NCBI RefSeq assembly: GCF_002854065.1
Contig: NZ_CP024147.1
Strand: one strand, 5' to 3'
DNA: 64,000 bases
Origin: Escherichia coli
Lineage (GTDB): Bacteria; Pseudomonadota; Gammaproteobacteria; Enterobacterales; Enterobacteriaceae
Part shown: piece by piece, positions 507 to 8,202 of the stretch
How the letters are laid out: every line of letters starts with the position of its first letter
Position numbering within the stretch: the stretch's first letter is position 1
The notes under the pieces: model-generated
Told to the model about the DNA's origin: nothing
Seen by the model: only the letters and a program-made list of their open reading frames with translations
The model's database searches: none
Position numbers and translations under genes: made by a program

Positions 507-1214
507 ATGGATTTGAATAAATTCGATGAGCCATTCAGCCCTGAAGATATCGAATGGCGAATACAGCAAAGCGGTAAAACACGCGATGGCAAGGTGTGGG
601 CTATGGTGCTGGCTTATGTAACGAACCGGGCAATCATGAAACGCCTGAACGATGTTTGCGGCAAAGCAGGATGGCGCAATGAATACCGCGATATTCCCAA
701 CAACGGCGGAGTTGAATGCGGCATATCAATCAGGATTGATTCCGAATGGGTAACCAAATGGGATGCTGCTGAAAACACGCAGGTAGAAGCCGTCAAAGGT
801 GGTCGTTCCGGCGCAATGAAGCGCGCTGCCGTTCAATGGGGAATCGGTCGGTATCTGTATAACCTTGAGGAAGGTTTCGCACAAACATCTCTCGATAAAA
901 AGCAGGGGTGGCACAGGGCAAAACTGAAGGATGGAACAGGATTTTACTGGCTCCCTCCATCGCTGCCGGGATGGGCAATACCAGCATCAGATAACAAACC
1001 ATCACCAGAAAATACCAACCAGAAATCTCCATCGGTTGACTGCGAACAAATCCTGAAAGACTTCAGCGATTATGCATCAACAGAAACTGACAAGAAAAAA
1101 CTCATCGAGCGTTATCAGCGTGACTGGCAATTAATGGCTGGCAACGAGGAGGCGCAGGCTAAATGCGTTCAGGTAATGAGCATCAGAGTTAACGAACTAA
1201 AACAGGCGGCATAA
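507..1214 (+). CDS. Phage single-strand annealing protein, Rad52/Sak-like
   Basis: 235 aa with KRAAVQWGIGRYLY-type motif recalled from Rad52/Sak annealases; immediately followed by ssb. Confidence 0.55.
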   Translation: MDLNKFDEPFSPEDIEWRIQQSGKTRDGKVWAMVLAYVTNRAIMKRLNDVCGKAGWRNEYRDIPNNGGVECGISIRIDSEWVTKWDAAENTQVEAVKGGRSGAMKRAAVQWGIGRYLYNLEEGFAQTSLDKKQGWHRAKLKDGTGFYWLPPSLPGWAIPASDNKPSPENTNQKSPSVDCEQILKDFSDYASTETDKKKLIERYQRDWQLMAGNEEAQAKCVQVMSIRVNELKQAA

Positions 1215-1721
1215 ATGGCAAGCAGAGGCGTAAATAAGGTGATTATCCTTGGTCGGGTAGGACAAGACCCGGAAGTTCGATACTCACCATCAGGAACAGC
1301 GTTCGCTAACCTGACAATAGCCACGTCAGAACAATGGCGAGATAAAAATACTGGCGAGCAAAAGGAATTGACTGAATGGCATCGTGTTGCTGTATCCGGG
1401 AAACTGGCTGAGGTCGTGGGGCAGTATGTGAAAAAAGGTGATCAGATTTATTTCGAGGGAATGCTGAGAACCAGAAAGTGGAAAGACCAGTCAGGGCAAG
1501 ACCGTTACACAACCGAGGTTCATGTCGGAATTAATGGCGTGATGCAAATGCTTGGCGGCATTGGCGACAGCAAACAACAAGCAGCCAGCAGGCAATCACA
1601 GAAGCCACAGCAGCAATCATCACCAGCACAACACAACGAACCTCCGATGGATTTTGACGACGATATACCCTTTGCACCAGTAACTCTCCCCTTCCCTCGT
1701 CACGCTATTCACGCAATTTAA
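1215..1721 (+). CDS. ssb: Single-stranded DNA-binding protein, prophage-encoded, with 15-aa extension past the DDDIPF tail
   Basis: [23 protein letters not shown]... OB-fold N-terminus near-identical to enterobacterial SSB; acidic DFDDDIPF motif present but followed by [15 protein letters not shown]. Confidence 0.9.
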
Positions 1722-1734
1722 TCAGGAGAAAATC

Positions 1735-2031
1735 ATGCCAGCGCCTCTGTATGGTGCGGATGACGCGCGCCGCTGTTCCGGCAATTCCGTATCGGAGGTG
1801 CTGGATAAATTCAGGAAAAACTACAACCGGATAATGTCGCTACCGCAGGAAACGAAAGAGGAAAAGGAATTTCGCCACTGTATATGGCTTGCAGAGAAAG
1901 AAGAACGCGAGCGAATTTACCAGACATCAATCCGACCATTCCGCAAAGCCACATATACCCACTTCCCTGAATATATCGACCCGCGCCTGCGTAATTACCG
2001 CTCACGCTATGGCGCTATCAGTAATGACTGA
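1735..2031 (+). CDS. Hypothetical phage protein (98 aa)
   Basis: ORF following ssb with AGGAGA RBS; no recognisable motif. Confidence 0.45.
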
Positions 2032-2041
2032 GGAATTTACC

Positions 2042-2206
2042 ATGAGAGGACTTGCATACAATCCCGGAATTCTTCCGGCAGAAATGATTATTCGCCAACG
2101 CGTAAAGCCAATGCCATCGAGAGAGGAATTGCTTAAGAGAAAGAGTTTCGGTTCTGTTAATGACAACAAATATCTGAATGCGATGTGGCTGAGTGGGAAG
2201 AAATGA
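2042..2206 (+). CDS. Hypothetical small phage protein (54 aa)
   Basis: ATG at 2042 with GAGGA RBS; stop overlaps next start as ATGA (2203-2206). Confidence 0.3.
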
Positions 2207-3766: not shown

Positions 3767-3958
3767 ATGTCTTGTCCAAAATGCGGTTCTGGAAATATTG
3801 CAAAAGAAAAAACAATGCGTGGATGGTCTGATGATTATGTGTGCTGCGATTGCGGATACAACGACTCTAAAGACGCATTTGGAGAGCGTGGTAAAAACGA
3901 GTTTGTCAAAATTAATAAAGAACGCGAAGGCGGTGATGCTGCCAACTTACTGATTTAG
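3767..3958 (+). CDS. Small zinc-ribbon protein (CxxC...CxxC); native last 4 codons displaced by IS1
   Basis: GGAGG RBS, MSCPKCGSGN...CCDCG; reading frame runs into IS1 at 3932; native C-terminus ...EREG-NEKS* reconstructable across the insertion. Confidence 0.5.
   Translation: MSCPKCGSGNIAKEKTMRGWSDDYVCCDCGYNDSKDAFGERGKNEFVKINKEREGGDAANLLI
3923..3931. repeat. 9-bp target site duplication (CGCGAAGGC), left copy
   Basis: Identical 9-mer directly abuts both ends of the IS1 at 3932-4699. Confidence 0.9.
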
Positions 3959-3986
3959 TGTATGATGGTGTTTTTGAGGTGCTCCA

Positions 3987-4262
3987 GTGGCTTCTGTTTC
4001 TATCAGCTGTCCCTCCTGTTCAGCTACTGACGGGGTGGTGCGTAACGGCAAAAGCACTGCCGGACATCAGCGCTATCTCTGCTCTCACTGCCGTAAAACA
4101 TGGCAACTGCAGTTCACTTACACCGCTTCTCAACCCGGTACGCACCAGAAAATCATTGATATGGCCATGAATGGCGTTGGATGCCGGGCAACCGCCCGCA
4201 TTATGGGCGTTGGCCTCAACACGATTTTCCGCCATTTAAAAAACTCAGGCCGCAGTCGGTAA
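3987..4262 (+). CDS. insA: IS1 InsA
   Basis: 91 aa [18 protein letters not shown]... Confidence 0.9.
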
Positions 4263-5245: not shown

Positions 5246-5437
5246 ATGACCGATACCAGCCTGATTCCTGAGAAAGAAGTGATGAACAAGCTCGGTGTTT
5301 CATCACGTCAGACAATCTGGAACTATACCAAACGGCACGGATTTCCGAAGCCAGTCAGAACCCACCCCAAATCATACCTTCGTGAAGCTGTTGAAGGGTG
5401 GATTCTTAACGGTGGCGTTAATCAGAAATGCTCCTGA
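5246..5437 (+). CDS. alpA: AlpA-family phage transcriptional regulator / excisionase-like
   Basis: 63-aa HTH protein resembling AlpA (MTDTSLIPEKEVMNKLGVSSRQTIWNYTKRHGFPKP...); adjacent to integrase. Confidence 0.7.
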   Translation: MTDTSLIPEKEVMNKLGVSSRQTIWNYTKRHGFPKPVRTHPKSYLREAVEGWILNGGVNQKCS

Positions 5438-6596
5438 TGTGCCAGAACAATTTATCAGCGTGAAGCTCATACGCTTTGCGCTGAGCCTCTATCCAGTCGT
5501 GTTTATTGTATACGGACATTATCCCGCCAAGTTCATGACCGAGCATTCGCTCAGTAACATGAGGCTCGACATTCATCTCGGACAGACGTGTAACAAGCGT
5601 TCTTCTGAAATCGTGTGTTCGCCAGTAACCTAGATCCATCCCTCCCCTTATTCTATTTACGAATCGGTTGGCTGCAGCGATGCTGATCGGTTTGTTTATG
5701 TCTTCTCCAGGGAAAAGAACATCATTGTACGTTGTCATGGCCTTTTCGAGGAAAGGCTTAATTTGTTCGAAGATTGGACGGCGGATAACATTACCCATCT
5801 TGCTATGCTCTTTCGGTACGGTCCATACGTTTTCCAGCAGGTCAAATTCTGTCTTTTTTGCCAGCCTAAGCTCTGAGAGCCTCGCCCCCCACAGCATAAG
5901 CATCTGATGAAGTAGCTTATTTGACGTAGACGCACGGCTTCTTTCAATAGCAAGCCAAATCTTAGCCAGTTCGTGATACGACAGTACCCGATCCCCTACC
6001 TCAGCGCGGGAGCCGAAGTCCCTTGGTTGGATGCTCATAATTGCGCAACTATCTATCAACTGACGCCGCATGCACCAACTTATTGCTGATCTTAGTTGAC
6101 TTAGCACCTGCCTTGCTCGGCGTGGATTATCTCTTTCTTCTTCGGTAAGCAGGTCAACCCATTGCTTAACCGTGATAGAAGATGCCGGACGATTAGGAAA
6201 GGCGTCATGCATGCGCTTCATAACCGTTGATCGGTAAAGTGCCTGGGTCTTTTCTCTGAGAGTTGTAGAGACGTAGTTGTCGAACCAGTAGTCGAGACAC
6301 TGGGCGACCGTCATGGAGTTCTCCACCTTCTCTTCAAAATAAGTGCGTGGATCCGTTCCTGAGAAATAGAGCTTTCGCAAGTCAGCAGTGATCTGTCTGG
6401 CATCCTTCAAAGACAGGGATGGGTATCGACCAAGCCCAAGTCGATTAGGCTTGCCATGCCAGCGATAGCGGTACTGGAACTGGATGACCCCCTTCGGTGA
6501 AATTCGTACGCTGAGGCCATCGGCATCAGCCACTTCTTGTGGGCCCGAATATGGTTTACCATAAATACTACGCAGTTTTGTGTCGCTTATAGCCAT
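5418..6596 (-). CDS. int: Tyrosine-type site-specific integrase (P4/CP4-57-like)
   Basis: 392 aa; C-terminal catalytic region with R...HDFRRT...LGH...Y motifs. Confidence 0.9.
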   Translation of the reverse strand: MAISDTKLRSIYGKPYSGPQEVADADGLSVRISPKGVIQFQYRYRWHGKPNRLGLGRYPSLSLKDARQITADLRKLYFSGTDPRTYFEEKVENSMTVAQCLDYWFDNYVSTTLREKTQALYRSTVMKRMHDAFPNRPASSITVKQWVDLLTEEERDNPRRARQVLSQLRSAISWCMRRQLIDSCAIMSIQPRDFGSRAEVGDRVLSYHELAKIWLAIERSRASTSNKLLHQMLMLWGARLSELRLAKKTEFDLLENVWTVPKEHSKMGNVIRRPIFEQIKPFLEKAMTTYNDVLFPGEDINKPISIAAANRFVNRIRGGMDLGYWRTHDFRRTLVTRLSEMNVEPHVTERMLGHELGGIMSVYNKHDWIEAQRKAYELHADKLFWHIRSISD

Positions 6597-6777
6597 AAAT
6601 AATATTTGGTACGCTCAGAAATAATGGTTTGGTACACATCTGGTACACAATATCACATGGACAACAGCGCACAGTAAACAACTATATTTGACGTTCGTAG
6701 ACATACTCAGGTGAAAAAATGGTTGTTTTTCGAGTTATAACAGACAGTTAATTAACTACAGTGGACAATGCTAGACA

Positions 6778-8202
6778 ATGACAGACGCAGATAAACAACC
6801 TACCTTCCTCTTTCACGATTACGAAACCTTTGGCACGCACCCCGCGTTAGATCGCCCTGCACAGTTCGCAGCCATTCGCACCGATAGCGAATTCAATGTC
6901 ATCGGAGAACCCGAAGTCTTTTACTGCAAGCCCGCTGATGACTATTTACCCCAGCCAGGAGCAGTATTAATTACCGGTATTACCCCGCAGGAAGCACGGG
7001 CGAAAGGAGAAAACGAAGCCGCGTTTGCCGCCCGTATTCACTTGCTTTTTACCGTACCGAAGACCTGTATTCTGGGCTACAACAATGTGCGTTTCGACGA
7101 CGAAGTCACACGCAACATTTTTTATCGTAATTTCTACGATCCTTACGCCTGGAGCTGGCAAAACCGCAATTCGCGCTGGGATCTGCTTGACGTGATGCGC
7201 GCCTGCTATGCCCTGCGCCCGGACGGCATCAACTGGCCGGAAAACGACGACGGTCTGCCGAGCTTCCGCCTGGAACATCTCACCAAGGCCAACGGTATTG
7301 AACACAGTAACGCCCATGATGCGATGGCCGACGTTTACGCGACCATCGCCATGGCGAAGCTGGTGAAGGCCCAACAGCCAAAGCTGTTTGATTATCTGTA
7401 TGCCTACCGGGGCAAAAACAAGCTGATGACGCTGATTGACGTCCCGCAGATGAAGCCACTGGTGCATGTCTCGGGAATGTTTGGCGCCTGGCGCGGAAAC
7501 ACCAGCTGGATTGCGCCGCTGGCCTGGCATCCGGATAACCGTAATGCGGTGATCATGGTCGACCTGGCGGGCGACATCGCCCCGCTGCTCGAGCTGGATG
7601 CCGATACGCTGCGCGAGCGCCTGTATACGCCGAAGGCCGAGCTCGGCGACAGTTCGCCGGTGCCGATTAAGCTGGTGCATCTGAATAAGTGCCCGGTGCT
7701 GGCGCAGGCCAATACCCTGCGCCCAGAAGACGCTGACCGTTTAGGCATTAACCGACAGCACTGCCTGGATAACCTGAAACTGCTGCGCGATAACCCGCAG
7801 GTGCGCGAGAAGGTGGTGGCGATTTTTGCTGAAGCCGAGCCGTTTGTCGCATCGGACAACGTCGACGCCCAGCTTTATAACGGTTTCTTTAGCGACGCCG
7901 ACCGCGCGGCGATGAAAATCGTGCTGGAGACCGAGCCGCGCAATCTGCCGGCGCTGGACATTACCTTCGCCGACCCGCGTATTGAGAAGCTGCTGTTTAA
8001 CTTCCGCGCGCGCAACTTCCCCGGCACGCTGGATGAAAACGAGCAACAGCGCTGGCTGGAACACCGTCGGCAGATCTTCACCCCGGAATTTTTACAGGCC
8101 TACGCCCAGCAACTGGAGATGTTGTACGGTCAGTATGAGGGGAATAACGAGAAGCTATCGCTGCTGAAGGCGCTGTATCAGTACGTGCAGGAGATTGTTT
8201 AA
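6778..8202 (+). CDS. sbcB: Exodeoxyribonuclease I
   Basis: 474 aa, near-colinear with E. coli SbcB (FLFHDYETFGTHPALDRPAQFAAIRTD...). Confidence 0.95.
   Translation: MTDADKQPTFLFHDYETFGTHPALDRPAQFAAIRTDSEFNVIGEPEVFYCKPADDYLPQPGAVLITGITPQEARAKGENEAAFAARIHLLFTVPKTCILGYNNVRFDDEVTRNIFYRNFYDPYAWSWQNRNSRWDLLDVMRACYALRPDGINWPENDDGLPSFRLEHLTKANGIEHSNAHDAMADVYATIAMAKLVKAQQPKLFDYLYAYRGKNKLMTLIDVPQMKPLVHVSGMFGAWRGNTSWIAPLAWHPDNRNAVIMVDLAGDIAPLLELDADTLRERLYTPKAELGDSSPVPIKLVHLNKCPVLAQANTLRPEDADRLGINRQHCLDNLKLLRDNPQVREKVVAIFAEAEPFVASDNVDAQLYNGFFSDADRAAMKIVLETEPRNLPALDITFADPRIEKLLFNFRARNFPGTLDENEQQRWLEHRRQIFTPEFLQAYAQQLEMLYGQYEGNNEKLSLLKALYQYVQEIV

Follow-up and report, generated by a model that had tools for sequence, protein, structure and literature searches.

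Partners of SSB, the single-stranded DNA-binding protein of Escherichia coli, grip its acidic C-terminal tip through the side chain and the free carboxylate of the terminal Phe. In the laboratory mutant SSB+Gly, a single glycine added behind the terminal Phe means that this carboxylate is no longer free; its affinity for chi is too low to measure, and it fails to bind DnaG (PMC3045619, PMC3632105). Here we analyze a prophage ssb gene whose product shares with E. coli SSB an OB fold, a disordered linker and an identical 11-residue tip, and then continues for 15 further residues. The gene is located in a 64,000-nt stretch of E. coli contig NZ_CP024147.1 (assembly GCF_002854065.1), which we call the window and whose positions serve as coordinates throughout. 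We use "tip" for the acidic DDDIPF-type end (residues 143-153) and "tail" for the 15 residues after Phe153. As in SSB+Gly, the Phe carboxylate is not free, but the extension in the window is natural, 15 residues long, conserved in sequence and phage-encoded.

Phage annealing proteins are known to read the last 6-7 residues of SSB (PMC5928155; bioRxiv 10.1101/2020.04.14.041095). In HK620, which also has a phage SSB beside its annealing protein (Sak4), the last residues of SSB are needed to stimulate the annealing protein on single-stranded DNA (ssDNA) (PMC5928155), showing that the C-termini of phage SSBs can be dedicated handles. The HK620 SSB bears no close homology to the window protein, and we rejected it as a described example of the tail, since it ends in NDYPPF with a free Phe and no extension. 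In T7, the acidic C-terminus of the ssDNA-binding protein gp2.5 ends in Phe and is the element on which partners dock; gp2.5 needs this terminal Phe and is not known to have a conserved peptide after it.

The lambdoid "SSB-1" proteins (Sf6, ES18; PMC12315714) belong to the same family as the window protein and occupy the same slot, with the annealing protein on one side and nuclease or anti-RecBCD genes on the other. The SSB of IME10, with which the Sf6 SSB shares its alignment statistics, ends in DDSDIPF and that of ES18 in DDEIPF, each with an endonuclease gene after it, whereas the window allele is tailed and endonuclease-free. The tail is not mentioned in the Genome Research 2025 survey (PMC12315714). 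What appears to be new here, judging from the open-access literature, is an SSB with a conserved post-tip module together with an ssb-specific endonuclease that shares its last codons.

Results

The ssb open reading frame (ORF; 168 aa with the tail, 1215..1721, plus strand) was taken from the ORF listing and the raw sequence, and its product is identical to RefSeq WP_000168274.1. An earlier note, made from the DNA letters alone, had called it a prophage SSB, and the profile matches agree: the match to TIGR00621 reaches 166.9 bits, well above the cutoff of 53.95, and that to PHROG 44 has E 2e-66. Residues 1-112 (1215..1550, plus strand) make up the OB-fold ssDNA-binding domain, for which the AF2 model gives a beta-barrel (strands E7-114) with confidence scores (pLDDT) of 83-91. 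They are followed by a disordered Q/P-rich linker (residues 113-142; 1551..1640, plus strand; pLDDT <50 at 117-152) and by the acidic tip (1641..1673, plus strand). Thus far the protein is a bacterial-type SSB, and both profiles stop at IPF. The tip, however, is internal rather than C-terminal, and no free Phe carboxylate is left, because the tail (1674..1718, plus strand) continues for 15 residues past Phe153. Codon arithmetic places Phe153 (TTT) at 1671-1673, Ala154 (GCA) at 1674-1676 and the stop codon TAA at 1719-1721. The earlier note was thus right about the internal DDDIPF, the 15-residue extension and the GCA codon in place of a stop, although it had put this codon at 1669-1671, 5 nt off. 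The tail peptide has an alternating-hydrophobic, hairpin-like pattern, and the model contains a strand at residues 164-167.

The tail is widespread, although the frequencies given here derive from samples that are biased or confined to the matches listed. A protein 100% identical to that of the window recurs in HK75, mEp235 and mEpX2, all of them phage isolates, and a 92%-identical one in the Salmonella phages epsilon34 and g341c. Matches over at least 80% of the gene are present in 303 of 5426 complete E. coli genomes, a few of them being the endonuclease-carrying allele of the Huey type described below. ECP1, CP-1639 and HZ41 have SSB cores that are only ~70% identical, yet they carry the same 15-residue tail. 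Among the best 120 clusters at 90% identity, a list biased towards tailed proteins as the query itself is tailed, ~113 are tailed after [IV]PF and 111 of these have exactly 15 residues; they include Klebsiella, Citrobacter, Enterobacter, Salmonella, Kluyvera, Pluralibacter and Phytobacter, and individual tailed clusters reach hundreds to about a thousand members. The tail length is constant in the sampled enterobacterial SSBs. A less biased census, based on IMG/VR contigs with the DNA pattern for MDFDDDIPF, gave 73 proteins that end at the tip, 43-44 of the tail family and 3 with other short extensions among the 120 matches listed. In a scan of genome contigs, 74 of 80 end at IPF, and these are mostly chromosomal ssb genes. 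The earlier note had considered that the tail might be a conserved feature of a known phage SSB subfamily. The tail is indeed conserved in a large subfamily, but not in a described one, as no description was found in the open-access literature by topic or by sequence strings.

A 15-codon open stretch after a lost stop codon has a probability of ~0.5 by chance ((61/64)^15), so that the significance of the tail comes from its conservation and not from the open frame alone. When 47 unique tailed genes were aligned by codons, the ratio of non-synonymous to synonymous rates (dN/dS) came to 0.26 in the tail, which has 0 gap cells, to 0.22 in the OB fold and to 0.35 in the linker, the most variable region of ssb. 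The value for the tip is meaningless in this set, since the tip pattern served to pick the sample. The set also includes one mis-started sequence of PHROG 4477, which touches the OB and linker columns but not those of the tail. The edges of a minimum spanning tree on unique tail haplotypes comprise 31 synonymous and 13 non-synonymous changes over 12.4 and 32.6 sites, respectively (omega ~0.16, p = 4e-9), and all 21 tail haplotypes together give an omega of 0.33 (p = 6e-10). Third-codon positions differ at 14 of the 15 tail codons with the amino acids retained, and distant tails with other codons occur in Gilliamella (AKIGLQYPKHTINVI) and Mixta (AYIGLQYPSHAIHSI). The tip PPMDFDDD[IV]PF is almost invariant among 116 tailed SSBs of an independent set. 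These comparisons indicate purifying selection on the tail at the level of the peptide. The tail DNA has no promoter-like or terminator-like site and no Rfam match, and its folding gave z = -0.07, so that an RNA or regulatory element was rejected.

The enterobacterial tail is a variant of a broader module. When a profile of the last 36 residues was compared with 1.84 billion representative proteins, 49 proteins matched, including OB-fold SSBs of other lineages and unrelated proteins of 268-406 aa. The generic form is DDDIPF-AP[IV]GLQY-x3-4-hydrophobic-x-[HYL]-x-hydrophobic, as exemplified by APIGLQYPALLNCS, APVGLQYNNAWIHCV, APIGLQYGRNFLHCF, SPIGLQYGKGRIYALS, AYLGLQYATHAIHALY and IGHGYGVCRKAIYAIS. 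Several SSB lineages carry the module, the "MAINTITVSGN" type (loci L146, L175) among them. In the lytic, rV5-like Klebsiella phage vB_KpnM_BIS47, a 406-aa PHROG 4477 protein ends in the tip plus APIGLPYGRNFIHCI, and the profile of its family ends at IPF. Because tip and tail move as a pair from one N-terminal domain to another, the tail is unlikely to work generally by docking on the OB fold. A docking peptide shared with other phage proteins was rejected as well, because among 6964 ORFs in 1.6 Mb of loci the motif occurs on SSB-type proteins and the endonuclease only.

The proteins of PHROG 4477, annotated as "unknown function" (L194 6537-7757, L095 42-476, BIS47 6537-7754), end in an SSB-type acidic tip, to which some add an AP-IGL-[PQ]Y tail. 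Their sole sequence matches in the PDB are to the last 25 residues of SSB. On this sequence evidence, they are probably ssDNA-binding proteins of rV5-like phages.

Two further observations concern relatives of the tail. A 16-residue variant after DDDIPF, [LI]GHGYG[VI]CRKAIYAIS or LGFGYGVCRKAIYAIS, is present in Pectobacterium polonicum (L012 2501-3049) and in P0221, P0232 and P0242, and shares only its C-terminal half (..AIYAI.) with the tail of the window. In the tail-less loci L218 and L219, the 80-nt spacer before an Abc2-like gene (1960-2039) holds a GC-rich inverted repeat (CGGAGGCGG...CGCCTCC), which might be a terminator or a regulatory hairpin.

The junction between Phe153 and Ala154 (1673..1676) is also the site of an insertion/deletion polymorphism. 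In E. coli HZDC01 and the phages IME10 and Huey, ssb ends right after IPF, and a 159-aa ORF begins ~4-9 nt past the ssb stop and ends with the tail codons. The additional ~440 bp, found at this junction in locus L220 as well, comprise the ssb stop codon, a ribosome-binding site and the first ~144 endonuclease codons. By blastn, window 1101-1673 corresponds to Huey 1387-1959 (98.3%) and window 1676-2100 to Huey 2400-2821 (97.9%); the window is Huey minus ~440 bp, that is, an endonuclease-free allele. The 46 nt at 1676..1721 (plus strand) are identical to the 3'-terminal stretch of the endonuclease ORF in both Huey and IME10 and form the right-hand homology arm of the polymorphism. In complete E. 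coli genomes the IME10-type gene was found 99 times, the Huey type 10 times and the tailed, endonuclease-free allele ~300 times.

The 159-aa ORF matches PHROG 2340 "endonuclease" (E 3e-47) over residues 1-143 only. In its AF2 model, pLDDT is ~98 for residues 1-140 and falls to a mean of 71 at 141-150 and 51 at 151-159; the tail (residues 145-159) is located in this low-confidence part. The residues C100, C103, H112, H113, H130 and H134 of the motif CxxC...HH..D...CxxCH...H are invariant in 59 sequences of the family, and D115 and C126 nearly so. Neither the query ORF nor any of the 59 members has a Pfam match, a PDB sequence search with the family found no match, and the best Foldseek match, Hpy99I, is weak (E 0.05). 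We tentatively regard the ORF as an HNH-like endonuclease on the basis of motif and model, the assignment of the fold being weak. Neither the IME10 record nor the PGAP annotation of the 99 E. coli genomes lists the IME10-type ORF (L009 1567-2046); the AF2 model of this ORF has a pLDDT of 93.5, and one cluster of the family contains 1262 members.

The shared core of 77 endonuclease relatives ends with ...WHKHNKPIY, and the endings that follow vary by lineage (PEDLKAA, GEAA, PEDNQANTPSNPDLTQ and others). The tail ending sits on endonuclease cores that are only 47-97% identical and occurs there in just three near-identical forms; on SSBs, there are >30 variants plus far more distant ones. The most economical reading of these sequences is that the tail belongs to ssb and is not native to the endonuclease. 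The endonuclease gene would have inserted at Phe/Ala, given ssb a stop codon, and would now read out through the last 14-15 ssb codons. Fusions of ssb and endonuclease sequences (P0011, P0014) form clusters of only 1-2 members. Together with P0025 and P0062, they are rare E. coli prophage chimeras that join SSB to the C-terminal half of the endonuclease, or the endonuclease to a DnaQ-like exonuclease. [quoted passage not shown]

Several features of the endonuclease recall free-standing homing genes. In every lineage examined (Cronobacter L211, L213, L214/215, L220), the family lies 8-11 nt past the ssb stop, whatever its own C-terminus. The flanks of the window and Huey are 98% identical around the 440-bp difference, the right flank having 1 mismatch in 120 nt. 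In ssb, the first 431 nt (1215-1645) are identical between the two, and 8 differences follow within 1646-1670, the last 25 nt before the Phe codon. An altered tip (DDSDIPF, DDQDIPF, DDDQDIPF or DDEIPF) was found in at least 6 of the 7 distinct endonuclease-carrying alleles examined, with L214 and L215, whose altered tips are identical, counted as one allele; in HZDC01, DDSDIPF is preceded by DF instead of NF. Among the 120 SSB clusters, DDSDIPF tips with the inserted Ser never occur with the tail, but NFDDEIPF does in 2 clusters, which is a caveat to the argument from tip changes. In ES18, an unrelated, T7 gp7.7-like HNH gene (gp47; L216 1710-2231) occupies the same slot between ssb and abc2, after an NFDDEIPF tip, suggesting that the 3' end of ssb is a hotspot for endonuclease genes.

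From this pattern in the sequences we infer cleavage and homing: the ssb-associated endonuclease is most likely a homing endonuclease aimed at the conserved tip-coding DNA. The Genome Research 2025 survey considered such HNH genes as possibly genuine nucleases of the recombination module (PMC12315714). Like the free-standing homing endonucleases of phages (T4 seg/mob, T7 gp7.7-like), the PHROG 2340 family is sporadically present between conserved genes, beside a highly conserved target, with an altered flank in the carrying allele. It differs from these genes in lacking a Pfam match, in lying directly 3' of ssb at every locus examined, and in closing, in tailed lineages, with the last 14-15 codons of the host gene.

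The neighbours of ssb fit a recombination module. Upstream is a Rad52/Erf-like single-strand annealing protein (507..1214, plus strand; PHROG 1097, E 3e-128; RefSeq "Rad52/Rad22 family"), whose stop codon abuts the ssb ATG. Downstream is the anti-RecBCD protein Abc2 (1735..2031, plus strand; PHROG 656, E 9e-56), annotated as abc2 in HK75 and CP-1639. As far as the sequence tells, ssb is an intact temperate-phage SSB gene of a lambdoid pL recombination module.

The module is bracketed by inverted IS1 copies at 1-287 and 3932-4218 (287-nt arms, 99% complementary); the right copy runs to about 4700 and the left one is cut by the window edge. Between them lie the annealing-protein gene, ssb, abc2 and several small genes, and the upstream pL genes cIII, kil, N and cI of HK75 and Ecol_545 are missing in the window. 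Therefore, the prophage may be rearranged or defective. Just past the right IS1 are a small AlpA/excisionase-like ORF (5246-5437, plus strand) and a tyrosine-integrase-like ORF of 392 aa (5418-6596, minus strand), and the region 5246-6596 is probably the end of a prophage or island.

Discussion

We consider it rather probable that the two parts of the C-terminus, the tip and the selected tail, act together as a dedicated peptide that blocks canonical docking, and that an endonuclease directed at the ssb tip has settled at their junction. The tailed SSB would still bind ssDNA. Given the behaviour of SSB+Gly, the lack of a free carboxylate on Phe153 would keep its tip out of the canonical pockets of chi, DnaG and other host partners. 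Tip and two-strand-like tail would then serve as a peptide for dedicated docking or self-association, and during phage recombination the protein would be diverted from the general SSB interactome of the host. That both parts are conserved suggests a two-part peptide with a target of its own, not a simple cap. The earlier note had likewise predicted impaired docking on canonical partners, for which the loss of chi and DnaG binding in SSB+Gly offers a precedent by analogy (PMC3045619, PMC3632105), and its interpretation of the tail as a whole is partly supported.

Several points weigh against this reading. SSB+Gly complements an ssb deletion, with slower growth (PMC3045619, PMC3632105), so that a blocked tip does not amount to a dead SSB. 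The tail is dispensable, as seen from the viable tail-less alleles of the same SSB subfamily (L218, L219, L180) and from the phages Huey and IME10, whose SSBs end in IPF-COOH. The AF2 confidence of the tail is only ~61. Furthermore, the synonymous rate (dS) of the tail is 0.40 against ~1.3 in the rest of the gene, and the tail DNA is near-identical across diverged cores, indicating that recombination, endonuclease co-conversion or constraint at the DNA level adds to the uniformity of the tail. Recent spread by recombination, plausibly through endonuclease-driven co-conversion, homogenizes the tail DNA. Finally, we infer the direction of the exchange, which could have been insertion into a tailed ssb or capture of the tail from the endonuclease gene.

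How do other explanations account for these data? A sequencing or assembly error, that is, a spurious base change that removed the stop codon after Phe, was an option in the earlier note and draws on nothing but the unusual end of the protein. The same or a near-identical sequence recurs in 174 E. coli records (at least 99% identical to ssb), in independently sequenced phages, and in Salmonella, Klebsiella, Enterobacter and other genera. In no related allele is tail DNA preceded by a stop codon at 1674-1676, and the sequence downstream of tip-terminated relatives is entirely different. The distribution refutes this explanation, and we give it practically no weight. Very improbable, in our view, is a neutral scar, in which a ~440-bp in-frame deletion fused an ssb ending in IPF-stop to the last 15 codons of the endonuclease and left a functionless tail that hitch-hikes. 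It is true that the endonuclease ORF of Huey, IME10 and HZDC01 has the tail codons at its 3' end, that the endonuclease family has long been adjacent to ssb in several lineages, and that deletion fusions of the two genes are known from P0011 and P0014. Those fusions, however, are confined to their 1-2-member clusters, in contrast to the hundreds to about a thousand members of tailed SSB clusters, and the tail shows a synonymous excess and no indels. The diversity of the tail also lies on the SSB side, with the AP[IV]GLQY forms of Gilliamella, Mixta, rV5-like phages and metagenomes besides the >30 variants, against three forms on the endonuclease, whose family profile and confident fold stop before the tail.

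Conservation could also reside in the DNA rather than in the peptide, the tail sequence being an endonuclease site, a homology arm or a signal for downstream expression. This would agree with a tail dS about a third of that elsewhere in ssb, and with tail DNA that stays near-identical across ~70% cores and before two downstream genes, abc2 or that of a DnaQ-like exonuclease. We nevertheless hold it to be improbable, since the variation at third positions spares the amino acids, distant variants keep the peptide pattern with different codons, and the module occurs in lytic phages in another genomic context. A somewhat better candidate, although still an unlikely one, is pure masking, whereby the tail merely buries the Phe carboxylate and the protein, as a dominant competitor, coats ssDNA without bringing in nucleases and helicases of the host, for example ExoI, RecJ and RecQ. 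The abolished docking of chi and DnaG in SSB+Gly speaks for it, as does the company of annealing and anti-RecBCD proteins, where protection of 3' ssDNA would help. But any extension, or loss of the tip, would mask equally well, and yet both the tip and a specific 15-residue pattern are kept. A masking or dominant-negative role leaves the near-invariant tip of tailed proteins unexplained, and tip and tail move together onto unrelated proteins.

Returning to the dedicated two-part peptide, a more specific version of it can be put forward, which we find possible but doubtful. Here, the tip plus AP[IV]GLQY/APVTLPF would be a portable phage module that turns an SSB or SSB-like protein from a host hub into the recruiter of one target, with the endonuclease toggling the gene between a "host-hub" (IPF-COOH) and a "dedicated" (tailed) state. 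Candidate targets would be the beta clamp, bound by way of a QLxLxL-like hexapeptide, Abc2-modified RecBCD, or neighbouring SSBs in cooperative filaments. Beta-clamp-binding motifs have the form QL[SD]LF or QLxLx[LF]. The tails carry hydrophobic residues at positions 2, 4 and 6 (V/I, L and F/Y in most variants), but position 1 is P, K or Y instead of Gln in all of them, and the likeness of PVTLPF and PIGLQY to the clamp hexapeptide is a sequence resemblance only.

An abc2 gene follows ssb in 37 of the 43 tailed loci and in 5 of the 73 that end at the tip. We rejected Abc2 as the tail partner, since it is absent from the divergent-tail loci L095, L146, L194 and L015 (Gilliamella), in some of which PHROG 38486 or an antirepressor takes its place, and since tip-ended ssb genes of the same subfamily (L180, L218/219) also precede Abc2-like genes. 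Lineage probably accounts for the association. The annealing protein was rejected as well, because Rad52-like, Erf-like and Sak4-like types all occur upstream of tailed SSBs. Abc1 sits at the ssb position in P22; as a source of the tail it was rejected, given that its C-terminus (...SRLSRLRKK) is unrelated and P22 has no tail DNA. PHROG 38486 ("unknown function"; ~100-128 aa, MLxPEQ[IV]LAxLRRDSRNHIT...; L146 6826-7125, L168 971-1291, L175 1847-2140, L214 3011-3397), which replaces Abc2 at these loci, could be a further anti-RecBCD protein or an accessory protein of recombination.

More than a dozen genome-maintenance proteins are considered to dock on SSB at one universal point, its free C-terminal Phe, and a large natural class of phage SSBs keeps the tip yet buries it under a selected peptide. 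Phages thus appear to own a standard way to uncouple or redirect ssDNA from the host SSB interactome. An endonuclease that splits ssb at Phe/Ala would be a selfish element on one of the most conserved short coding sequences of bacteria. The partner of the tail would bear on the recombination-dependent replication of phages, and on recombineering, where the pairing of SSB and annealing protein limits portability. Prophage SSBs of this kind, present in ~5% of E. coli genomes, might also interfere with replication and repair in their hosts.

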